Positions 3,491 through 50,200 of a stretch of DNA of 64,000 nt are shown here, in pieces; positions within the stretch are counted from its first letter, which is position 1; every line of letters begins with the position of its first letter. A model generated the notes under the pieces. The model was not told the DNA's origin. It saw only the letters and a list, made by a program, of their open reading frames with translations, and searched no databases. The translations under genes were made by a program, and so were the position numbers. The stretch covers positions 105,464,001-105,528,000 of the forward strand of contig NC_086107.1 of the NCBI RefSeq assembly GCF_963921235.1. The letters are read 5' to 3'. The DNA is from Mobula hypostoma (lineage: Eukaryota).

Positions 3491-4845
3491 CGGTGAGTGT
3501 TATCTCTCGTCTCAAGCGTCTTGGGTCCCAGACCACCAGGTTCAGGAAAAGCTGTTGCCCTACAACCATTAGGCTCCTGGACTGATGTGGAGGGTTTCAC
3601 TTGCCTCAGTACTTAGCCCACTCCACAGCCTGTTTCCAGGTGTGGTTTTTCATGGATTCTATTGTATTTCTCTATTTTCCTGTAGGCGCCTGAAAAAAAA
3701 AAGAATCTCAAGGCTATATTTGGTATATATACTTCGATAGGATTGTAGGCCATTCTCAGGGTAGAGCAGCAACACCTCAGAATCCATCTAGGTAGCCTCC
3801 AACATGGTGGCATGAACACAGATTTCTCCTTCTGGTATTTTTTCCTTCTTTTCTTTTCCCCTCCTTGGCCTCTTATCTCTGCCTGTCACCTCCCCCTGGT
3901 GCCCCTCCATCTTCCCTCTCTCCCATGGTCTACTCTCCTCTCCCATCGGATTTCTTCTTCTCCAGTCCTTTGCCTTTCCCACCCATCACCTTCCAGTGAG
4001 TCCTACTCTCCCTCCCACACCTTTTTATTCCAGCGTCCTCCCCCTCCCTTTCTCGGCCCGGAACATTTATTCACTTCCATCGCTGCTGCCTGACCTGCTG
4101 AGTTCCTCCAGCTGCTCGTGCCCGTTACTTCGATAATAAATTTACTTTTGAACTTTTTGAGTTTTTAAACAGGCCCAGGCTGATCCTGGCCTAGCCAGGT
4201 GGCCAAGAAAGCACCCCAACACCACCATCTCCTCAGAAGGCAAGGAAATTCAACATGACTCCTATCATTTTCCATAGATGTCAAAGTCAAGGTAAAATTT
4301 TATTCCAAAGTACATACATATCACCACATCCTATCTCAAGATTCATTTTTTGCAGGCATTTACAGGAAAATAGATATATTAGAATTTAAGAAAAACTATA
4401 AAGACTGGCAACAAACTACATGTAAATAAATAATACTGAGAACACAAGTTAGAATCCTTGAAAGTGAGTCCGTAGGGTTGTGGAATCAGTTCAGTGATGA
4501 GGTGAGTGAAGTTATCCACACTGGTTCAGGAGCCTGATGGTTGAAGGGAAATACTCTAACTGTTCCTGAACCTGGTGGAGGCCCTCTGTCTCCTGCCAGT
4601 TGGTAGCATGAAGAGAGCATGGGGGTCCTTGATCACTGATGCACCACAGAAAGCATCCTATCATGCATCTGCCCATCTGCAAGAACCTGCAGAGTTGTGA
4701 TCGAAGAAGCCCCCCCCCCCCAGTCTATCACACAAAACCAGCCTTTCCTGCACCGAGTGGACCCATGCTTCTGGGAAAGCAGCTAACGTAACCAATGACC
4801 TTTAAAAAAAAGCATGAGAGAGCAAACCACCAGAAAGAAGGACAA

Positions 4846-8360: not shown

Positions 8361-10518
8361 CAATCACCCTCCACCAGCAGCCCATTCCTTCTGAAATCAT
8401 TCCCCAAATCACCCTCCACCACCAGCCCATTCCTTCTGATATCATTCCCCAAATCACCCTCCACCACCAGCCCATTCCCTCTACTATCAATCCCCAAATC
8501 ACCATCCACCACCAGCCCATTCACTATCATTCCCCAAATCACCCTCCACCACCAGCCCATTCCCTCTACTCATTCCCGAAATCACCCTCTACCACCAGCC
8601 CATTCCCTCTACTATCATTCCCCAAATCACCCTCCACCACCAGCCCATTCCCTCTACTATCATTCCCCAAATCACCCTCCACCACCAGCCCATTCCCTCC
8701 ACTATCATTCCCCAAACACCCTCCACCACCGGCCCATTCCCTCTACTATCATTCCCCAAATCACCCTCCACCACCAGCCCATTCCTTCTACTATCATTCC
8801 CCAAATCACCCTCCACCACCAGCCCATTCACTATCATTCCCCAAATCACCCTCCACCACCAGCCCATTCACTATCATTCCCCAAATCACCCTCCACCACC
8901 AGCCCATTCCCTCTACTATCAATCCCCAAATCACCCTCCACCACCAGCCCATTCCCTCTACTATCATTCCCCAAATCACCCTCCACCACCAGCCCATTTC
9001 CTCTACTATCAATCCCCAAATCACCTTCCACCACCAGCCCATTCACTATCATTCCCCAAATCACCCTCCACCACCAGCCCATTCCCTCTACTATCATTCC
9101 CCAAATCACCCTCCACCACCAGCCCATTCCCTCTACTATCATTCCCCAAATCACCCCAGCCCATTCCCTCTACTATCATTCCCCAAATCACCCTCCACCA
9201 CCAGCCCATTCCCTCTACTATCATTCCCCAAATCACCCCAGCCCATTCCCTCTACTATCATTCCCCAAATCACCCTCCACCACCAGCCCATTCCCTCTAC
9301 TATCATTCCCCAAATCACCCTCCACAACCAGCCCATTCACTATCATTCCCCAAATCACCCTCCACCACTAGCCCATTCCCTCTACTATCATTCCCCAAAT
9401 CGCCCTCCACCACCAGCCCATTCCCTCTACTATCATTCCCCAAATCACCCCAGCCCATTCCCTCTACTATCATTCCCCAAATCACCCTCCACCACCAGCC
9501 CATTCCCTCTACTATCATTCCCCAAATCATCCTCCACCACCAGCCCATTCCCTCTACTATCATTCCCCAAATCATCCTCCACCACCAGCCCATTCCCTCT
9601 ACTATCATTCCCCAAACACCCTCCACCACCAGCCCATTCCCTCTACTATCATTCCCCAAATCACCCTCTACCACCAGCCCATTCCCTCTACTATCATTCC
9701 CCAAATCACCCCAGCCCATTCCCTCTACTATCATTCCCCAAATCACCCTCCACCACCAGCCCATTCCCTCTACTATCATTCCCCAAATCACCCCAGCCCA
9801 TTCCCTCTACTATCATTCCCCAAATCACCCTCCACCACCAGCCCATTCCCTCTACTATCATTCCCCAAATCACCCTCTACCACCAGCCCATTCCCTCTAC
9901 TATCATTCCCCAAATCACCCTCCACCACCAGCCCATTCCCTCTACTATCAATCCCCAAATCATCCTCCACCACCAGCCCATTCCCTCTACTATCATTCCC
10001 CAAATCACCCCAGCCCATTCCCTCTACTATCATTCCCCAAATCACCCTCCACCACCAGCCCATTCCCTCTACTATCATTCCCCAAACACCCTCCACCACC
10101 AGCCCATTCCCTCTACTATCATTCCCCAAATCACCCTCCACCACCAGCCCATTCCCTCTACTATCATTCCCCAAACACCCTCCACCACCAGCCCATTCCT
10201 TCTACTATCATTCCCCAAATCACCCTCCACCACCAGCCCATTCCCTCTACTATCATTCCCCAAATCACCCTCCACCACCAGCCCATTCACTGTCATTCCC
10301 CAAATCACCCTCCACCACCAGCCCATTCACTGTCATTCCCCAAATCACCCTCCACCACCAGCCCATTCACTGTCATTCCCCAAATCACCCTCCACCACCA
10401 GCCCATTCCCTCTACTATCAATCCCCAAATCACCCTCCACCGCCAGCCCACTCCCTCTACTATCGTTCCCCAAATCACCCTCCACCACCAGCCCATTCCC
10501 TCTACTATCATTCCCCAA
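8361..10518. repeat. Minisatellite, 45-bp unit CCCCAAATCACCCTCCACCACCAGCCCATTCCCTCTACTATCATT with shorter deletion variants, roughly 50 copies
   Basis: Directly visible tandem array with strong C/G strand skew. Confidence 0.97.
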
Positions 10519-19500: not shown

Positions 19501-19689
19501 GCCTTGAACAAGCCAACATGGTCCTTAGTTAACTGATAAAAAGGAATTTGAAGATCAAAATCAATGTCAGGCCCAGGATAGATCCCCTGAGATGTTCAGA
19601 ATCAGAATCAGGTCCAATATCACCAGCATATGTCATGAAATTTATTGTTTATCCGCAGCAGTACATTGCAATACATAATAAAAAATATA

Positions 19690-21080
19690 ATTCCCACCTC
19701 AGCTACTGAAGTTTGTAACTCTTCCAGAGATGTCATAGGTCTCTTGGTGGTCTCCCACACTAGTCCCCTTGCATGGTCACTCAGTTTTTGAGGACGTCCT
19801 GCTCTAGGCAGATTTACAGCTGTGCTGTATGCTTTCCATTTCTGAATGATTGACTTAACTCTACTCCAAAGGTTATTCAGTGACTTGGAAATTTTCTTGT
19901 ATCCGTCTCCTGACTTGCGCTTTTCAATAACTTTTTTGCAGAGTTGCCTGGAGTGTTCTTTTGTTTTCATGGTGTAGTTTTAGCCAGGATACTGACTCAC
20001 CAGCAGTCGGACCTGCCAGATACAGGTGTACTTTTATTGTGTTACGAGAATACACATAAAATTAAGATGTTTGCTGGCCTGGGCTAGCATCAGTGGCATC
20101 AGCAGTTGGTCTGCCACCTGCCCTCAGGGGAAGGAGAGATAAGGAACAATGGAGCAGCATCTGGAGATGTGTAATGGAGGGACGTGGGAGAGAGAGCTGT
20201 CTGGAGCGGCTCCCCCCTTTGAACCCTGAACTGTTTGAAGTGATGGACAGGCGATACCCCAGCAGGGGGATAGAAAGGGGACAGGTTCGCTAAGACAGAC
20301 ACACACGCCACCCGAGGTAACGAGACCCTGGAAGCGGTGCGCCTCTCACGAGTGGGTGAGAAGTGCCAGACAACGACCAGGGTGGAAAGGTACGATCAGC
20401 GGGAACCCGGTGTGTGTCCGCCCTTGCCTGGGTGCCGGGTTCACTGCAGAGGATCGACCGCATCTGGAGGAGGGGTCACAGTCGGTGACCTCAGGTGACA
20501 TCACCAAGGACCCGCCCAAAAGTTGCTTGTGAGCCATCCCGCTGGTCTGTGAGTGAAGCCGTTCTGAATGATCAGTTGTTCCTGTTCTCTCTGTCTCTCT
20601 TCCCCCACCTTGTCCATCGCCATGGCAACGATTACTGCGAACTGAACTACAAACTGGACTGAACTTTGAGTCATTTTGAAATTGGTCATTTACCCCTAGA
20701 CAACGATAGAGCTTGATTGATGCTGTTATCTTACTTCTGTGCACATGTGTGTTTATCATCACTGAACTGTTGCATTTATTATCCTTTCGATTAATGTGTT
20801 GCTTGTTTCTTTAATAAAACTTTCTTAGTTCTAGTACTCCAGACTCCAACTGAGTGATCCATTTCTGCTGGTTTGGCAACCCAGTTACGGGGTACGTAAC
20901 AATTGAAACACCTTAACTACACACAGTGATCTACATTTAACTTATTATGTGACTTCTAAAACCAACCGGCTGCACCAGTGATGATTTGGTATGTCGTATT
21001 AAAGGGGGTGAATACTTATGCAATCAATTATTTTGTGTTTTATATTTGTGATTAATTCAGATAACTTCATAGGGATCTGT
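19690..21080 (-). mobile_element. Tc1-like transposon remnant (transposase N-terminal HTH), interrupted by a solo LTR
   Basis: MKTKEHSRQLCKKVIEKRKSGDGYKKISKSL...LPRAGRPQKLSD (GRPxK motif). Confidence 0.85.
20040..20901 (+). mobile_element. Solo LTR (862 bp)
   Basis: TGTTACG...CGTAACA ends, perfect 4-bp TSD ATTG, AATAAA near 20813. Confidence 0.9.
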
Positions 21081-30900: not shown

Positions 30901-33900
30901 GTTGGGTGTTAATCACGACTGGAAAACAGGTGATAAGTCAACTAAGTCACTTATAAGTGGCTAATATACTCAATTTCATTTCTAAAAGGGTTTATCTAAT
31001 GAATTTAATATTAAACACATAGCACATATTTTCCCCGTATGAACATATAAAATCATTGCAATACACCAATATCGGTGAATCAGTGGGAGCCCTGGGGTTG
31101 TTTCCTTGCAACAAGATGGTCCTATCGAGGGGTGATGGGAGACAGCGATACTCGAAGGGGGTTCCTTGTGTCCAGTCTATTCCGCAATTTAGTTTTCGTT
31201 GGATTCATTGCAGAAAACTCCACTTCGCAGCGATATGATTTTGGAATTGGAAGCAACGTTTTCAGTGTTTTCGTGGCTATCTCAGGATATTCAGCCTTGA
31301 CTTTGATCCAGAATGCCGACAAAGACGTTAATGTCAAACATACTTTTCAGCCCGCCGTCATTTGCAAGCTTGAGGAGTTGATCATCTTCCCGCACTGACA
31401 TAGATGACGCGTGGGTAATGACCTCGCGTGCGTTCCAAGTTCCGACAGTGGGCGTCGCAGGGAATGAGGAAAGGTGCAGCTGACTCATATCATTTCATAT
31501 CGCCAAATCATATCGTTTCCTCGCGGCCCGGTGGTTGGAGACCACTGTCTTAGGGACTCGGGCTCTGGATTTTTCCTCAGGGTTTACTCCCAAAGCACTC
31601 TCCATCAGTGGGTATAGACGCAAGGTAGCAGAGGTTTGAGATTAGAGTTTTCCTTCTAGATGAGCTGCCAAACATGGCTGACGAGCCCCATCTGCCTGAA
31701 GGGACTGGTTTTAAATGCCAGAAACCTGCCCTGGTGCCTTCTGTCAGTAGTAACGGTAACGTTGTGCTTAGTAGCCACATGTGAAGCCTATGAGCTGGGC
31801 TTGGTTGTCAGAGGCTGTCTGAGACGCATGACGTTGGGAGCATTTAATAGGTAGTGGGAACTCATCCCCACCACCACGACTGACTATAACAACCTTAAGG
31901 AACTGGCATTTGACAAGATGCCATGTAAAATGCCGGTGAATAAATTAACAAACTAAAGTATTAGAAGAAGTGTGTTATCATGGAATGAAAACTATTTGTA
32001 ACATCGAAAAACAAAGAGCTGGAGAAAGTTGGTCCTCCTCAGGCACGAGGAATGTAATTGGTAAATTATACCAGTGGTTTTTGGTCCTCACATTTTAATT
32101 TAATGACCTGGATGAAGGAAAAGAAATTGAAGTTTTTAAAGTTTGCCAATGATATGGAAATGGATGGAAGAGCATGTTGTGGTTCTGCAGTGTGCTGTGG
32201 AATGGGTGACTGGGCAAAAGACCTGGAGTTTAATGTTGGTAATTGTAGGCAATGCTCTTCATTTAAGAGCGATGAAGAGGTGCATATGTAGACAATTTCT
32301 CTAACTGTGGACTGATGAACACTCGGATCTTTAGAAATGTTTTTGTAGCCTTTTCCAGCTTTGCATCTCTACAATTCTTCTGAGGTCCTCTGAAAGTTGT
32401 TTTGATCGAGGCATGGTGCACATAAGCAGAACTTTCTTGAGAAGAGCAGGCTCTGTCAGTAACCTGATTTACTGTGTCTTTTTTCATAAGGCAGGGCACC
32501 TCTACAACCCACACCTCCAATCTCGTCTCACTGACTGGAACACCTGATTCCAAATAGCTTTTGGAAAAGGCATTACCCCGGAGGTTCATGTACTTCTTTG
32601 AATCTAGACTGTGATTGTGTAAATGGTCTACTCAGTATTGATGAGAAGAAGTAGAATTATTTGTGTGTTATTAATTTAGGCAGATTGTGTTTGTCTATTA
32701 TTGTGACTTAGAAGAAGATCTCATCATTTTTTATGAGTAATGCAGAAAACCAGTGAATTGTAAAGAGTTCACAAACTTTTTCTTGCAACTGTACCTCAAT
32801 TGGATCACACTTGAGTCTCACAGTATGATAGAAAATGAATCTGATAGCCAAAGTAAAATCACTTGCCAGTAGCATAGAACATAGAACAGCACAATACAGG
32901 TCCTTTGGCCCATGATGTTCCGACCTTTTAACCTACTCCAAAATCAATAGAGTTCTTCCACACACATCAAAGGGATACGAGAGGATCATGGGACAGGAGG
33001 CCTAGGGAGAAAGAAAGGGGGAGGGGGGAAGCCCAGAGGATGGGCAAGGGGTATAGTGAGAGGGACAGAGGGAGAAAAAGGAGAGAGAGAAAAAGAATGT
33101 GTGTATATAAATAAATAATGGATGGGGTACGAGGGGGAGGTGGGGCATTAGCAGAAGTTAGAGAAGTTGATGTTCATGCCATCAGGTTGGAGGCTACCCA
33201 GACGGAATATAAAGTGTCGTTCCTCCAACCTGAGTGTCCCAGACAGAATATAGCGTGTTGTTCCTCCAACCTGAGTCTATCCACGGCCTCCTCTACTGTA
33301 AAGATGAAGCCACACTCAGGTTGGAGGAACAACCCTGTTTGTTTATATACACACATTCTTTCTCTCTCTGTCCTTTTTCTCCCTCTGTCCCTCTGACTAT
33401 ACCCCTTGTCCATCCTCTAGGTTTTTCTCCCCCCTCCGCCTTTTCCTTCTCCCTGGGCCTCCTGTCCCATGATCCTCTCATATCCCTTTTGCCAATCACC
33501 TGTCCAGCTCTTGGCTCCATCCCTCCCCCTCCTGTCTTCTCTTATCATTTTGGATCTCCCCCTCCCCCTCCCACTTTCAAATCTCTTACTAGCTCTTCCT
33601 TCAGTTAGTCCTGACGAAGGGCCTCGCCCTGAAACGTCGACTGTACCTCTTCCTAGAGATGCTGCCTGGCCTGCTGCGTTCACCAGCAACTTTGATGTGT
33701 GTTGCATGAATTTCCAGCATCTGCAGAATTCCTCGTATAATAGAATTCTTCCTTCCCTTACAACCCTTCATTTTTTTTTCATCCAAGTGTCTATCTCAAG
33801 TCTCTTAAATTAATATATATGGCTCTACCACTAACCCTGGCAGCATGTTCCATGCACTTAACCGCTACCTGGTTGCTTTACTGTTTGGTATGGAGAGGCC

Positions 33901-36900: not shown

Positions 36901-39900
36901 TCCCTCCCCACCGCGATTTAATCCTAGCCTAATCACGGGACAATTGGGTCAACACAAAATTGCTCTTTTCTTGCTTCAATACCTTCAGCTAGATGTCAAT
37001 CAAATCTTCACTATGCTTCATGGTCTTTTTAGCTATTTAGCACAAGGCTGTATTCCTGTGCTTAAAATTTACCTCTCCCAGTCCCCGGGGATCATGGATG
37101 ATTCAGTTCCACTCTGATGGCTTTTAAAGAATCAGAAGAAAGCAGTGTGCAGAATCCTTCACGGTCGCTGGAGGATAATTTGTGAGCTGGTATATTCCTT
37201 CCACTGAGGTATTTGAGCTCCCTGTGTTGGTACTCAAGATCCCAAATGGTTTATCCCAATTTGTTTGGGAAAGGGCCAGGGATTCCTGGGAGTCAGCAGG
37301 GATATAGCATTTTTCAGGGAGATTCTATGCACGTTCTTGAATCTCTTCCTCTGTCCACCTGGTCATCTCTTTTCATGCCAGAGCTCAAAACGTTGTCCAT
37401 TGCGGAAGTCCACCATCTGGTTTTCAATAATGTGGTCTGGAAAAAAAATTGCTCTTATGTTTTTGATGTATTATTTATAGCCAAAGTTTTGCAAGGGGTT
37501 ATTTTTTTCCCATGTTGTGCTCTTAGGTAAGGTCTCAATTTCATGTAGCCATAAATCTTGAATAGGTGGCCGCATGGCATATTGGATTCTGCAGTAACAG
37601 CAGTAATAGTTACTGCACTGGATAGTCCTCACTCCTATGTCAGAACACATACTTTAAACAGGAGGCACTTGATCCGGAAGACCATATCCCATAAGACAAT
37701 AGGAGCATAATTTGGCCCATCTGGTCTGCCCTGCCATTCCATCATGGCTGATTTATTATCTCTCTCAACCCCATTCTCCTACCTTCTCCCCGTAACCTTT
37801 GAAACCCTTACGAATCAAGGACCTCTGCTTTAAACGTATCCAATAACTTGGTCTCTGCAGATGTTCACAGCAATGAATTCCACAGAATTTCACCACCCTC
37901 TGTCTGAAGAAATTGCCCCTCATCTCTGTTGTAAAGAGACATCCCATTTTGAGGCTGTGCCCTCTGGTCCTAGATCCCCTGTTACTGGAAACATTCTCTC
38001 CAATCTGTCTAGGCCTTTCAATATTTGATAGGTTTCAGTGGAATCCCCCTCATTGTTTTAAACTCCAGCGAGTACTGTCCCAGAACCATCAAGAGCTTCT
38101 TGTGTGTTAAAGAGGAAGAGAAATTCTGCCTGAGTTCATTTCTCCCTGTGACTTTGCACAATGGTCACCCCTGACTCCCAAGTAGAAGTAGGGAGAATCA
38201 ACCCAGGCCTCAGGGCGGGGAATTTCAGCGCTGTTGTGCCATTTCCATGATTTGTTTTCAGAGGACGTTTCTAAAATTGCCTTCTCTCTTTCAGCCACGC
38301 CAGGCCGCCTGATGGATCACCTGCAGAACACGAAGGGCTTTAATCTCCGAGCGCTCAAGTACCTGGTGATGGACGAAGCTGACAGAATCCTTAACATGGA
38401 CTTTGAAGTTGAAGTATGTGAACAAGGATTTCTTGTGCTTTCCTCATTTGTTTCTTTGATGCTGCAGGATTTAATTGGAACCTTTCAGGACTTCAAAGAG
38501 TTTTGTTTTATGGTGTAGTGTCACTGTTCTCACTGACTGTACTGTGATAACTGAGATGATCTTCGAGATGTTTGAGGTGTAAATACCCTAGGGCATTGTA
38601 CTGTTTAGAATTGCACACTGGGATAAGACAGACAGAACTTTGTCGCAATGTCAAACCTCTGACAATGATGTATAACCTCACTGCTGCCCAAGGCTAGAGT
38701 AGGACTTTAACTAGGGACTTTCTGATCAGTACAAAACAGGAACAGGCACTTTAGCCCACAATGTTGTGCCGAAACAGCTAAAAAATAATCTAAATCAAAA
38801 CTAATTCATCCTGCCTACACTATGACCATATCCCTCCATTTTCCTCGTATTCACGTGCCTATCTGAACACCTCTTAAAAGCCTCTAATGTATTTGCCTCC
38901 ACCACCACCATACCAGGTAGTGCACTCCAGGCATCTGCCACTCTCTGAGTAAAAAATACTTAACCCTCACATCCCCTTTGAACCTACCCCCTCACCTTCC
39001 ATGCATGCCTTCTGGTATTAGACATTTCATCCCTGGGATGCTCCCTGTCTTCTCTGTATATGCCTCTCATAATCTTATAAACCTCCATCAGACCTCCCCT
39101 CATCCTCCGCTGCTCCAGAGAAAACAATTCAAGTTTATCCAGCCTCTCATGATATCACATGCCCTCTAAACCGGGCAGCATCCTGGTAAACCTCTTCTGC
39201 ACCCTCTCTCAAAGCCTCAACATCCTTCTTATATTGGGGCAGCTGGAATGGTACGCAGTACTCCAGATGTGGCTTAACCAGAGTTTTATAAATTTGCAGT
39301 CCTGATGGTCTGCTTACTGTTTGACACTGCCTGGATGGCAGAGCAAATGGAGAGGGATACAACACAGGAGCAGGCCCGTTTGCCCACTCCATCTGCGCCA
39401 GGCACCTATTTTGTTCTCACCAGCTTTTCTCAGGTTCTATCCTTTGCCCTTCTCACTAGAGGCAACTTGCAGTGGTCAATGAGCCTAGCAGTTTGACGTG
39501 CGGGAGGAAACCAGAGCCCCCGGGGGGAAGCTGACGCAGTCACAGTGTAAAGTGTACAATCTCGACACAGCAGCAGAGGTTGGGGTTGAACCGGGCTTGC
39601 TGGTGTTCTGGGGAAGCAGCTCTGTCAGCTCTCCTACACTGCAGTCCCAAATGTTCATTCAATTCCAGTAATCTCCAGTGTGATAGTAATGCCTGCTCCC
39701 AAGAAGCATAACCCGTTCCTCCAAACCAGACCTGCCCCTCGGCCAAAGAGCAAAGAGGGCAACTTTGCTCTTGTCCTGTCATGCTGGTTTCAAAGATAAC
39801 GTCATTATTAGAAAATATTTTGGGGCATCTTAGAGTTGTAAAATATCATGGAGTTAGACAGCATGGAAACATGTCCTTTAGCCCAACAGGTCCCTGCTGA

Positions 39901-42900
39901 CCCTTGTGCCCACCAAACTCGTCTCATTTGTCTAGAAGTACAAGTTGTGTATATAGAGTGGATTCCAGTAAATTGGGCCATCAGCTTATATGTGCAGCTT
40001 AATTGGGACGCAAACAACAGGAATTCTGCAGATGCTGGAAATTCAAGCAACATACATCAAAGTTGCTGGTGAACGCAGCAGGCCAGGCAGCATCTATAGG
40101 AAGAGGCGCAGTCGACGTTTCAGGCCGAGACCCTTCGTCAGGACTAACTGAAGGAAGAGTGAGTAAGGGATTTGAAAGCTGGAGGGGGAGGGGGAGATGC
40201 AAAATGATAGGAGAAGACAGGAGGGGGAGGGATGGAGCCGAGAGCTGGACAGGTGATAGGCAGAAGGGGATACGAGAGGATCATGGGACAGGAGGTCCGG
40301 GAAGAAAGACGGGGGGGGGTGACCCAGAGGATGGGCAAGAGGTATATTCAGAGGGACAGAGGGAGAAAAAGGAGAGTGAGAGAAAGAATGTGTGCATTAA
40401 AAAGAGTAACAGATGGGGTACGAGGGGGAGGTGGGGCCTAGCGGAAGTTAGAGAAGTCAATGTTCACGCCATCAGGTTGGAGGCTACCCAGACGGAATAT
40501 GGTGTGTATATTCCGTCTGGGTAGCCTACAACCTGATGGCGTGAACATTGACTTCTCTAACTTCCGCTAGGCCCCACCTCCCCCTCGTACCCCATCTGTT
40601 ACTCTTTTTAATGCACACATTCTTTCTCTCACTCTCCTTTTTCTCCCTCTGTCCCTCTGAATATACCTCTTGCCCATCCTCTGGGTCACCCCCCCCCCCG
40701 TCTTTCTTCCCGGACCTCCTGTCCCATGATCCTCTCGTATCCCCTTCTGCCTATCACCTGTCCAGCTCTCGGCTCCATCCCTCCCCCTCCTGTCTTCTCC
40801 TATCATTTTGCATCTCCCCCTCCCCCTCCAGCTTTCAAATCCCTTACTCACTCTTCCTTCAGTTAGTCCTGACGAAGGGTCTCGGCCTGAAACGTCGACT
40901 GCGCCTCTTCCTATAGATGCTGCCTGGCCTGCTGCGTTCACCAGCAACTTTGATGTATGTAGCTTAATTGGGAAGCTGCTTATTTGGGACAACTCTTAAA
41001 CAATGAAAACTAATGGAGAAAATAGCCGGGATTCCCTTCATTTATTTGGGACACTCTCTTGCTTAATTCTGACAGTAGACTGTTACCCAGCAGTTTCTAA
41101 CTAGTGTCAGTTGAGTGCACGGATGTGGCCGTTAGGCAGTACACCGTGCTTAAAGCGAATAGTTTTTGAGTAGCATTAGTTGTGTTTGTGTTCAAGAAGC
41201 AGTAAATTTTGTCTCTGATCGTTGGCGAGAAGTAAGCATTAAGACAATTCAGAACTGTTTTGCTTACTGCGGTTTCAAGCATTCAAGTTTGGGAAGCCAG
41301 AAACGGCAGGGAATGAAAATGAAACCATTTCACAACATCAAGTTAGGAACTACGAAAAATTTGAAGGTATTGATAATCCTCTTGAATGTGACAATGAAAA
41401 GGAAGATTTGGAGGAAGCAATCGTCGATAGCAATGTATGAAGGTGGTCCATGACCTGCACTGCGTGTTTGCACTGATTTTGTTCATTTACAGTCAACCAA
41501 AAGAACACAGCAGATGAATTTCTCTTGATAACTATTAGACACTAATACACAGTTTTATAGTACAGGTCGACCTTCACTAATCCGACTACCTGTAATCCGG
41601 TTCCTTTGATAATCCGCACTGATTTCAAATTTTCCGCGCAACTGTAATTTCAAATTTTCCGGGCCACCGTACCAATCTGCTGCGCATTGTTTTGGTTGCG
41701 CTAGATCTGTTCATGTGTTGGCGCGCCCCTGTAAGCACAGACAGGTGATTCCTGCTTGTTTTTCTGCATTTATTAATATCATTTGCGTGAGACACGGCCG
41801 CTGGGCGCCCGTCCGTCTCACCCGCCTGTGGTCATGCAGTGCCCGCCGGCGTTGCCCGGCTGGCGCTTCATTCTCTTCTGTCCACGACCTCAGATCAGAC
41901 GCGGTGACCCACTGAATTTAAGCATATTACTAAGCAGAGGAAAAGAAACCAGTGAGGATTCCCTCAGTAACTGCGAGTGCAATGTAGTCTTTGGGGTAAC
42001 TGCAAGTCTGTGTCTTTGCTATTGCTTTGCTCACGCTTGAGTGCTGGTAGTGGGCGTGCTTTACTTTTGCCGGTGGGGAGGGAGGGGATTGTTTCTTGCT
42101 GCCACTTACGCGGGGGAGGAAGGGGAGCGGTGGGGGGGGGGATCTTAGGGGTTCTAACATTTAACTGTCATTCATTCTTTGGGGCACTCTGTTTTTGTAG
42201 ATGGTTGCGAAGAAAAAGCATTTCAGGATGTATATTGTACACATTTCTCTGACATTAAATGAACCTTTGAATCCTTTGATATTTTAAAGGTACGTTGAGG
42301 CGGTTAGCTATTGCTTAATGTGATCCTTCTGTAATTCGGCATTTTCACTAGTCTGGCATTCCTCAGGTCCCAGTGGTGCCGGATTATAGAAGGTCGACCT
42401 GTACTGTTGTAGTATTGCTAGTGTTCTTATTTGTTCAGTATTTCATTTAAATACATAATTCGTTATTCAGTTCTATGGTCGTTTTGTCTTTTTTATACCT
42501 TTTTAACTATTTAACTTCTGCTAAATGGGGCAACCACTTAAATGGGCCAAAATTTACTGGTCTGATGTGTCCCAAGTAACCAGAATCTAAAAAAAGGGTG
42601 AAGACCATTCTGTCCTTCTGGCTGGCTGTGCCATTTGCAGATCTGCCTCCGTTATCTTCTAGCTCAATCTCTATACCCTTTGATTCTCTCAATAGTCAAA
42701 ATCAATTTGTATTTTATCTCCAATGAACACAGTTACAGACCTTTCACAGCGATCTGGGCTAGAGAATTCCAAAGTTTCATGACTCAGAACTTCATCTTAA
42801 TCCTAACCCTTGCTCTGAGAAGTGCCTTTTGTGCACTTAGTCAAGCCCTAAATGAATGTGTGCTTTGATGAGATCTCCTCTTATTCTTATACAGCCTGGA

Positions 42901-44207
42901 GAATATATTTCCTTTAGTGCCCATGTCATTTGCTTGAAGAGATCCTGAACTAGCAAGAGTGGAAACATTCTGTGGTATTGAGTCCTGTCCAGTAGCAGGT
43001 TGATGCATCTCATGTACCTATGCATTGGGTGAATTAACCTGTGTTCTGTATATTGGCCAGCAGATGGTGCCATTGTCCATGATGCAACAGAAAGCAATCA
43101 GACTATTTAACATTTAATATTCATTCCACTGTTCGTTGGAATACTGTTTCTGCAGGTAGTTGGTGCACAAAGTTACTTGAGTTACTGCCATTTTCCTGTC
43201 AGCTTGAGCCAATCTTGCCATTCTCCTCTGACCTCTCATTAACAGGGTTTTTCTGCCCACAGAACTGCCGCTCACTGGATGTGTTTTGATTTTTCTCACC
43301 ATTCTCTGTAAACAGGGGTTCCCAACCTTTTTTTTATATGCCAGTGAGCCTTACCATTAACCGAGGGGTCTGTGGATCCCAGGATGGGAACCCTTGCCGT
43401 AGAGACTGCTGTGCGTGAAGATCCCAGGAGATCAGCCTCTGCGATACCCAAACCACCCAGCTGGAACCCACAATCATTCCATGGTTAGAGTTACTGAGAA
43501 CACATTTCCTGCTCATTCTGAACGACAGCTGAACCTCTTGACCGTGTCTGCATGCTTTTGTGCATTGAGCTGCTGCCACATGATTGGCTGATCAGATTTT
43601 TGCGTTAACGTACAGGTGCACCTAAAACGTATCCACTGAGTGTATTTGTAATGGGTGATGTAAGGATTTGTTAGTTGCGGGGGAATAGTCCTTTGAATGT
43701 CAAGTCCACTTTCTTATCCGGTTTCACTGACCCATAACTTTTTTCCGTAGGTTGATAAAATTCTCAAGGTGATTCCTAGAGAGCGGAAAACCTACCTGTT
43801 CTCAGCTACAATGACTAAGAAGGTAAAGGAGGTGTTAGAGTTGAATCTGAATGAAACGCGGGAGACCAGATGCTTATAGTTACCACAGTTTATTGCGCAC
43901 CCTCCTGCAAGAGTTTGAGACTCAGTTGTCAAAGGGAAGGCACGTAAGTACTGCCACCATTTGACAAGTGGGCCTTCTCCCTCGGTTATAGCCGTATATT
44001 TATACATAGTAAGCCCCATACATTACTGTTGCAAGGTGTTATTTGGACTGGTACGCCCACCAAGTTTGTTTGTGCAGAACTTAGTTACAGATAAGGGAGT
44101 CCACTAGATCAAGACTTAATTACAGATGGATGTTCATTCCTGTCCTTGGTGAGCCCTCCTCCCCCTACTCAAACGAGAGTACAATGTACAATGTTATCAA
44201 TCTCTCA

Positions 44208-47200: not shown

Positions 47201-50200
47201 CATTGTGGGCCGAACGGCTTGTTCACATGCTGAACTCTTCTGTGTTCTGTATGAAGGGTAAACTGAGGGCAATGGAATAAGTGCTAATCAGCTCCCGTTA
47301 GATAATGTTCTCAGCTGGCTGACCTCAGTCAGTGTTCTACAGTTAACTGCAGTACCATTGAATGGGAAGAATCAGCCAAAGATTCTCCTGCTCAATGTTT
47401 GCTGTTTTTGGGCAATAGGGATTTGGATGTGATACTGGAGTTATAGGGAAGTACAGCACAGAAGCAATCCCTTTGGCCCATCTACTCCATGCCAAACCAT
47501 TTAAACCACCTACTCCCATCGACCATCACCGGGACCATAGCCCTCCATATCTCTACCATCCATGTACCTAGCCAAACTTCTCTTAAATGTTGAAATCAAA
47601 CTCACATGCACAACCTGTGCTGGCAGCACATTCCACACTCTCTCAACCCTCCGAGTGAAGACGTTTCCCCTCATGTTCCCCTTCAACTTTTCACCCTCAA
47701 CCAATGACCTCTAGTTGTAGTCCCACCCTTCCCAATAGAACATAGCACAGGAAAAGGCCATTTTCCCCATGATGTATCGAACCAGCTAAAAAGCAAATCA
47801 GAGACACCCAAACACTAATCCCTCCTACCTACACCATGTCCATATCCCTCCATTTTCCTTACATCCATGTGTCTATCCAAAAGTCTCTTAAAAGCCTCTA
47901 ATGTATTTGCCTCTACCACACATTCCAGGCATCCACCACTCTCTGAGTAAAAAAAAACTTAACTCCTCACATCTTACAGTGCCTGGGAGCTTAGAAATAG
48001 CAGATGTACATGAGATTAGTCATAGTCATACTGTATTGATCCCGGGGGAGATTGGTTTTTGTTACGGTTGCATCATAAGTAATAAATAGTAATAAAACCA
48101 TAAATAGTTAAATAATAATATGTAAATTATGCCAGTAAATTATGAAATAAGTCCAGGACCAGCCTATTGGCTCAGGGTGTCTGACCCTCCAAGGGAGGAG
48201 TTGTAAAGTTTGATGGCCACAGGCAGGAATGACTTCCTATGACGCTCTGTGTTGCATCTCGGTGGAATGAGTCTCTGGCTGAATGTCCTCCTGTGCCCAC
48301 CCAGTACATTATGTAGTGGATGGGAGACATTGCCCAAGATGGCATACAACTTGGACAGCATCCTCTTTTCAGACACCACCGTCAGAGAGTCCAGTTCCAT
48401 CCCCACAACATCACTGGCCTTACGAATGAGTTTGTTGATTCTGTTGGTGTCTGCTACCCTCAGCCTGCTGCCCCAGCACACAACAGCAACCACGATAGCA
48501 CTGGCCACCACAAACTCGTAGAACATCCTCAGCATCGTCCAGCAGATGTTAAAGGACCTCAGTCTCCTCAGGAAATAGAGACAGCTCTGACCCTTCTTGT
48601 AGACAGCCTCAGTGTTCTTTGACCAGTCCAGTTTATTGTCAATTCGTATCCCCAGGTATTTGTAATCCTCCACCATGTCCACACTGACCCCCTGGATGGA
48701 AACAGGGGTCACCGGTGCCTTAGCTCTCCTCAGGTCTACCACCAGCTCCTTAGTCTTTTTCACATTAAGCTGCAGATAATTCTGCTCACACCATGTGACA
48801 AAGTTTCCTACCGTAGCCCTGTACTCAGCCTCATCTCCCTTGCTGATGCATCTATGCAACTATGGCAGAGTCATAGAGAAGCATTGAGTAGCTTTATTAC
48901 TGATTTCTCCCCCCCGTCACCCCCTCTGTGATGCAGCTTGCTCTGTTGCCGCTGCCTGTCACATTTCCTGGGTCTGTGTTCCTGTGTGTGCGCTGCACAG
49001 TCTACCCCAGTTTAATGCAAGCCCGGTTTTTATTTTGCAGGATTACATCCATCGGGTGGGACGCACAGCCAGAGCTGGTCGCTCGGGAAAGTCCATCACT
49101 TTCGTCACCCAGTAAGTTTTGCCCGTTGAGGTGTAGCAACTCTGTTACATTTGGTTCCCTATCACTTGCTCATTCAACTTGTTACTGAAGTGGAGCCAGA
49201 GACTAGACGGAGTTTCGGAGAAGAGAACAGCCCCTTGTAGGTTACCAGCCTTCACGAAACCTAGTGCTTGTTCAGAGTGGGGAATACCCAGTATAGTGGA
49301 GGATGCTAAGGTGAATCTGGCATATGCTAATGATCAAGGGTATGTTGAAATCAAGGAGCTGATGGTCTCTACTTTAAGAATATTAAACTTTATAAGTCCC
49401 CTAGACCTGATAGGTAAAATAAGTAAAGGCATCTGTTAGTCTTGCGGGACCATGGATCTGCGCCTGGAAAGTCTTCACTCTCCAGGGCGCAGGCCTGGGC
49501 AAGGTTGTATGGAAGACCAGCAGCTGCCCATGCTGCAAGTCTCCCCTCTCCACGACACCAATGTTGTCCAAGGGAAGGGCAGTAGGACCCATACAGCCGC
49601 AGAGCACTGTGTGGTTAAGTGCCTTGCTCAAGGACACAACACGTTGCCTCGGCTGGGGCTCGAACTCACAACCTTCAGATCGCTAGTGGAATGTCTTAAC
49701 CACTTGGCCACGTGCCCAAGGTATAGGTATGACCCTGGCTATTGAGAGAGGCAAGAGAGATTTCCCTTCCTTTCCAGTCCTGAAGATGTGTCTTGGCCCG
49801 AAACATCGACATAGATCCTGCCTGACCTGCTGAGTTCTTTCAGAATTTTGTGTGTGTGTTTTTTTTGCTATGGATTTCCAGCATCTGTAGTCTGTTTTGT
49901 GTTTAAGAGAGGAGATTACTGAAGCCTTGACAAAGATCTTTGTATCTTCTCTGGCCAGAGATGAGTTATCAGATGAGCTGTGAATCTAAGACTCTGGCGG
50001 CCTGTCCTGGGACTGGAGTCCTTTCTGTGTATGTGAATGGGTGGGTAGGTTGGGAGGGCGGGAAGAGGCCTTTGCTGTGTTGTTTTGATGCTGCTGTTGC
50101 TGCTTGTGTTCTGCAGAACATTGTGGACGTGCTGTGGTGGCGACATTTGTGGCCTCGGGCGTGTTGTTAACACAAACAACACATTTCACTGTATGCCTCG

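Follow-up and report, generated by a model that had tools for sequence, protein, structure and literature searches.

A multicopy, TA-duplicating DNA transposon family with 28S rRNA and likely ITS2 cargo and a built-in retro-type piece, with a copy in a ddx47 intron

Ribosomal DNA is rarely reported inside DNA transposons; among the entries of Table 2 in a 2024 review (PMC10946416), Pokey/mPok of Daphnia alone belongs to class II. Pokey/mPok is of the piggyBac type, inserts in 28S genes, and carries IGS repeats. Passages of Tan et al. 2021 (PMC8277862) describe multicopy animal Pack-TIRs, which hold host sequence between TIRs, have junctions common to several loci, and carry GC-rich cargo; the same passages give zero Pack-TIRs for the elephant shark. 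The terms rRNA, rDNA, and ribosomal are absent from the main text and the 12 supplementary files of PMC8277862. For 28S rRNA/LINE-1 chimeras, parts of a preprint (bioRxiv 10.1101/2025.02.02.635956) report 18 cases, 83% of them in the same direction, with a median of 269 nt. SINE28 (Longo et al. 2015, PMC4994717) consists of dispersed mobile copies of 28S.

The window analyzed here, a stretch of 64 kb, holds at 41563-42401 an 839-bp TA-flanked TIR DNA transposon copy inside an intron of ddx47. The features of this region are listed below by position.

38414-43750 (+): ddx47 intron holding the nest of repeats, with the preceding exon ending near 38413 and the next one beginning near 43751
39956-42587 (+): older high-copy TIR-type repeat with approximate ends, from flank depth, degenerate inverted ends, and empty sites
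41561-41562 (no strand): left TA target-site duplication, from the sequence and the empty-site joint
41563-41784 (+): left arm of the non-autonomous DNA transposon, from subterminal motifs and copies with other flanks (X1-4, X5-18, X9-27)
41563-41584 (+): left TIR, 22 bp, from the inverted match to the right end
41785-41884 (+): GC-rich cargo that likely represents the 3' portion of ITS2, from its direct contact with 28S position 1 and from loose ends into GC-rich sequence
41885-41979 (+): decayed 5' end of 28S rRNA, from Rfam RF02543, with CpG-decay changes at 41911, 41936, and 41953 relative to the majority letter
41980-42278 (+): 5'-truncated piece of a very-high-copy repeat with a CTTTGA-type tail, from depth, a distant homolog, and shared junctions
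42279-42401 (+): right arm, from a short family form joining 41616 to 42312 (8, 7, 2, and 4 contigs)
42380-42401 (-): right TIR, from the inverted match to the left end
42402-42403 (no strand): right TA target-site duplication, from the sequence and the empty-site joint

The two 22-bp TIRs match at 20 of 22 positions, a level reached by none of 500 random end-pairs of the window at equal spacing (best, 17). The motif TAATCCG occurs in the left arm at 41578, 41593, and 41610, and all four of its copies in the 64 kb fall in the ends of the element. Relatives were collected from the contigs of four sequencing runs, out of at least 24 available, with three organism labels, at 80% likeness to positions 41350-42600. 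All four runs contain contigs (7, 8, 2, and 4) in which 41559 is joined to 42401. This joint skips 841 letters, that is, the 839 of the element plus one TA, while the letters between the two joint ends are not known in these empty-site contigs. Empty sites are available because the flanking high-copy repeat has other copies that lack the element. The TIRs, the TA on both sides, and the empty sites in every run bear out the earlier note, which had described this stretch as a TIR element from its letters.

The TA duplication, the short TIRs starting with CAG, and the subterminal repeats agree with pogo/Tigger elements, and by its resemblance we take the element to be of the Tigger type. The pogo/Tigger assignment is a likely type label that rests on the TA, the form of the TIRs, and this resemblance. 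None of the seven reading frames scanned in the element matched a transposase family, and no remnant was found. No second copy of the element was found within the 64-kb window, and the TIR motif had no match in metagenome contigs or in viral contigs. Three matches in prokaryote genomes (L001, 1501-1522; L002, 599-620; L003, 1004-1025) were rejected, since they consist of the 22-letter end motif only and about one is expected by chance.

The host gene was identified as DDX47 (best PDB match, E of 4.7e-20) and runs on the + strand, as does the 28S piece, in agreement with the sense orientation proposed before. The element jumped into a TA of the older repeat at 39956-42587, which is presumably Tigger-like from its resemblance and in whose reading frames no Pfam match was found. 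We rejected a functional connection with ddx47, since the element landed in this older repeat, other copies have other flanks, and orientation is a coin toss. The setting looks accidental, and the suggestion that the location may be a coincidence is thereby supported. The older repeat also holds, at approximately 40003-40960, a partly duplicated, inverted repeat that occurs at 32969-33733 as well, and the nest in this one ddx47 intron has three layers. Elsewhere in the window, positions 8361-10518 form a tandem array of ∼2.1 kb with a unit near 43 letters and long open frames on the + strand. A 231-codon open frame at 48164-48859 (-) is one that we take to resemble the end of a LINE reverse transcriptase, and a frame at 19620-19979 (-) presumably resembles the N-terminal part of a Tc1 transposase.

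The cargo was examined with Rfam. LSU_rRNA_eukarya (RF02543) matches 41908-41986 at model positions 24 to 103 of 3401, with 53.5 bits against a gathering value of 50 and an E of 8.7e-10 (47.7 bits in another Rfam scan). Counting back from this match places model position 1 at 41885, the same position at which the 28S 5' end had been set from the letters. The stretch at 41785-41884, already pointed out as GC-rich, has 62 to 79% GC versus 45% in the arms and lies directly 5' of 28S position 1, where ITS2 would lie. Neither 5.8S nor 18S is among the 11 Rfam matches in the 64-kb window.

A single contig of run X5 matches from 41785 on, and its upstream part (255 letters listed) is GC-rich and is not transposon sequence. 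The same kind of GC-rich, non-transposon sequence lies upstream in single contigs of X1 and X5 that match from 41848 on. The contigs that leave upstream of 41785 or 41848 rank among the best-supported loose ends listed, and depth goes up by about 1,500 at their start. This rise and the GC-rich upstream ends are what a homogenized rDNA array would give. Position and loose ends together indicate that 41785-41884 is likely ITS2. After 41826, at least 11 contigs of X5 and at least 5 of X9 continue differently, and the ddx47-intron copy has probably lost part of the ITS2-like spacer through an internal deletion near 41827-41847. The 28S-junction motif had no match in metagenome contigs. Folding scores (z of −1.2 to −1.3 for the cargo and −2.2 for a second hairpin, with 6 of 200 shuffles) were set aside as GC-driven and weak.

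Compared with the majority letters in the relatives' contigs, 9 CpG decays stand among the 28 differences listed for the whole element. The 195-letter cargo of the ddx47-intron copy has at least 13 differences, at least 5 of which are CpG decay. This decay suggests that the ddx47-intron copy is a dead, methylated passenger.

The data on relatives come from 32 of 59,397 pieces, 15 of 521 joints, 24 of 2,440 loose ends, and 40 of 337 differences; in these listings presence counts and absence does not. Run contigs resembling human DNA were dropped by a filter and may include some that bear 28S. Twenty-two of the 32 listed pieces lie in the element, the other 10 being flank pieces that were left out of the tally, and none of the 32 spans the whole element. 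The junction between left arm and cargo (41784/41785) is bridged by at least 3 of the 22, with at least 31 letters on each side. These bridges are diverged (X5-20 by 15%, X5-21 by 4%, and X9-27 by 8%), and X9-27 continues into 785 letters of a different left flank. The left end is found with hundreds of letters of other flanks in X1-4, X5-18, and X9-27, and positions 41792-41802 are present in 20 to 38 contigs per DNA run.

A short form of the family lacks the cargo, with 41616 joined to 42312 in all four runs (8, 7, 2, and 4 contigs). This form is ∼150 bp long and has about 10 other letters between the two positions. An rDNA insertion private to the ddx47-intron copy, with no cargo family behind it, would agree with the single copy within the window and with the commonness of such cargo-less short forms. 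Diverged contigs that bridge arm and cargo, one of them with a different flank, speak against it, and X5-20 and X9-27 largely refute this explanation, which is now highly improbable. The earlier note had regarded relatives lacking the rDNA segment as the sign of a one-off insertion. Some relatives do lack it, namely the short form, but three contigs bridge left arm and cargo, so that the dispersed, rDNA-derived cargo that it had proposed stands. Only some members of the family bear the cargo. Four listed pieces stop at 41783, three of them continuing into unaligned letters, and they may derive from a parent whose interior was different or from copies in which the cargo is longer.

Summed depth in the inner arms is 2,100 to 2,500 in X1, versus 6 to 9 for single contigs. 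Although summed contig depth is not copy number, these values suggest, roughly, that copies of the long form number a few hundred and those with cargo tens to low hundreds. In X9, which is only guessed to be an RNA run, depth is ∼900 to 2,000 over the spacer part, 25,000 to 50,000 over 28S, and 250 to 300 over the inner arms. This step is a weak hint and was not counted as expression, given the guessed nature of the run.

The piece at 41980-42278 is likely the 3' end of a SINE or LINE, with class and sense read from its tail, and it starts somewhere within 41980-41994. In X1 its peak bins reach a summed depth of 85,000 to 425,000, versus ∼2,500 in the inner arm. A distant homolog lies at 16448-16224 (-) with an E of 1.1e-5, and the similarity seems to extend further 5'. 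The homologous stretch at 16448-16200 (-) is preceded by a long GA repeat.

The earlier note had treated this piece as a separate insert bounded by CTTTG. The motif is indeed present at both ends, at 41989-41993 and 42274-42278. However, at least 2 of the 22 listed pieces (X5-22 and X5-23, 14% different) join 28S to the retro piece, and X5-22 has 97 extra letters on the spacer side that are missing from the ddx47-intron copy. In at least 2 of the 22 (X9-31 and X9-32) the retro tail is joined to the right arm, and these continue through the TIR into 418 and 1,240 letters of other flanks. The former bridges are from organism B and the latter from organism A. Other copies thus show the same connections of this piece, to 28S on one side and to the right arm on the other, which means that it moved along with the transposon and did not insert later into the ddx47-intron copy alone. 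What is new here is that the retro piece is built into the rDNA-carrying transposon family, which makes an RNA route slightly the better reading of the capture.

The boundary role of CTTTG is in doubt as well. The 3' copy is the repeat unit of the retro tail itself. For the 5' copy, bin arithmetic in X1 shows that, with 41980-41993 outside the repeat, the mean depth over 41994-42021 would have to be 127,000, and position 41998 has 82,000; the arithmetic assumes that no unlisted position lies far above the depth at 42009. The same pattern is seen in X5 and X10. Because the depth at 41998 is too low for placement outside, the retro body probably includes the 5' CTTTG, and it is doubtful that CTTTG is the target-site duplication of the piece.

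These observations bear on how the cargo was captured. The main alternative, a strong one but somewhat less likely than the reading preferred below, is that two steps were involved, a Pack-TIR-style DNA capture of the ITS2/28S junction from rDNA, by gap repair or a template switch in replication, and then a retro insertion at CTTTG in one cargo copy that was still transposing. The CTTTG on both sides would suit such an insertion, and a spacer in the cargo comes naturally from a DNA donor. The three listed pieces that leave at 41783 (into 31, 37, and 275 letters) do so as a parent with another interior would, and passages of PMC8277862 have multicopy Pack-TIRs arise by template switching and transposition and favor GC-rich DNA. 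The second event would, however, have to land within 14 letters of the cargo end and in the same sense, the origin of the two CTTTG copies is as described above, and none of the 15 joints listed, of 521, omits the retro piece alone.

We prefer an origin by template switching because the rRNA is 5', the tail is 3', both have the same sense with almost no spacer (14 letters at most), and both junctions are shared. There is about an even chance that the ITS2-28S-retro block inside this multicopy TA-duplicating DNA transposon arose as one chimera, by reverse transcription of pre-rRNA together with retroelement RNA, and that it was then amplified. A LINE reverse transcriptase would have primed on a CTTTGA-tailed RNA at a site inside the pogo/Tigger-type element and copied ∼290 to 300 nt. 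It would then have switched, 95 nt inside 28S, to an ITS2-containing pre-rRNA and continued backward past the first position of 28S into ITS2 before integration. Copies with the arm-cargo, 28S-retro, and retro-arm junctions lie at other loci, as seen junction by junction. The TIRs, the TA, and the lack of coding capacity suggest that a transposase acting in trans multiplied the composite. The ddx47-intron copy sits in a TA of the older repeat and has CpG-type changes, and it would have lost part of its ITS2-like spacer. In the two-step account as in the chimera, it is as DNA that the composite multiplied, and the cargo is likely a neutral passenger.

The chimera also has points against it. The stretch 41994-42278 has CTTTG on either side, which is the pattern expected from an independent insertion, and pre-rRNA is a short-lived nucleolar RNA and thus a scarce template. 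A single target duplication around the block of cargo plus retro piece was not found, the longest shared word being 4 letters; it could have been erased by deletion, or not made by the LINE class concerned. Going by its tail for the class and sense of the retroelement, the block places cellular RNA upstream of a retroelement 3' end with both in one orientation, and it works like a template-switch chimera. It is not filed as one, since it lacks the target duplication. An empty-parent joint of 41784 to 42279 is not among the best 15 of 521 joints, and cargo copies without the retro piece may be hidden among the filtered contigs or the other 506 joints. The passages of the preprint on 28S/LINE-1 chimeras (10.1101/2025.02.02.635956) do not mention ITS2, which counts against this reading too. 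In addition, the two bridges from 28S to the retro piece and the two from the retro piece to the right arm come from different organisms, B and A.

A retroelement already present in a 28S gene or an rDNA orphon, with ITS2, 28S, and retro piece captured as one DNA block, would explain the shared 28S-retro junction of X5-22 and X5-23 without RNA switching. The block nevertheless ends exactly at the retro tail, and Rfam gives one LSU stretch, with no 28S after 42278, which makes this origin unlikely.

In its full form, the chimera reading would have a LINE reverse transcribe a nucleolar pre-rRNA containing ITS2, the product end up in a DNA transposon, and a class II transposase multiply it in a common ancestor of several related species; we consider this course of events somewhat short of evenly likely. 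If true, a class I capture was spread by class II machinery and left datable fossils of ancestral ITS2 outside concerted evolution. The family would then document that unprocessed pre-rRNA was accessible to the reverse transcriptase of a LINE, and old ITS2 would survive in the copies for comparison with the homogenized arrays of today. The cargo is unusual and is moved by known processes; no host function of the element is indicated.

The fragment had been said to contain the site of ITS2 reverse primers, and the published primer ITS4col, in passages of PMC4948600, fits 41922-41941 with 1 mismatch in 20. The concern for rDNA PCR that was built on this site was overstated. Because no 5.8S match lies in the window, a universal 5.8S-28S amplicon from the ddx47-intron copy is impossible. 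Shark species assays, as given in passages of PMC3322161, combine an internal ITS2 forward primer with a 28S reverse primer. Only designs of this kind, probes, and read counts could therefore be affected. Copies could add signal to probes for the 28S 5' end, to short qPCR amplicons, to estimates from read mapping, and to assays with a forward primer late in ITS2. The practical effect is modest and the PCR risk is small.

No paper on a TIR element with ITS2/28S cargo was found in a search of listings and the starts of abstracts, with repeat databases and subscription journals outside its scope. Like Pokey/mPok of Daphnia (PMC10946416), the element is a DNA transposon or MITE with an rDNA-derived interior. 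It differs in being TA-duplicating and dispersed and in carrying the ITS2/28S junction; it lies in an intron and not in a 28S gene, and its cargo is the 28S 5' end and not derived from the IGS. It shares dispersed mobile 28S copies with SINE28 (PMC4994717) and differs from it in class and in the region of 28S, the cargo corresponding to model positions 24 to 103 of 3401 whereas SINE28 originates from the 28S 3' end. The likeness to the 28S/LINE-1 chimeras, in the parts of 10.1101/2025.02.02.635956 that describe them, is an rRNA piece of ∼50 to 480 nt in the same sense and 5' of a retroelement 3' end. Those chimeras are single-locus and made of mature 28S, often starting near position 3636. In contrast, the piece described here seems to cross the ITS2/28S boundary, its partner is a putative retroelement, and it was amplified inside a DNA transposon. 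With the multicopy animal Pack-TIRs, as portrayed in passages of PMC8277862, the element shares host sequence between TIR arms, GC-rich cargo, and cargo junctions that recur at several loci where the flanks differ, each junction being seen separately (X9-27, X9-31, and X9-32, and the diverged X5-20, X5-22, and X5-23). It differs from them in that its cargo is rDNA and that a retro 3' end is fused to it.
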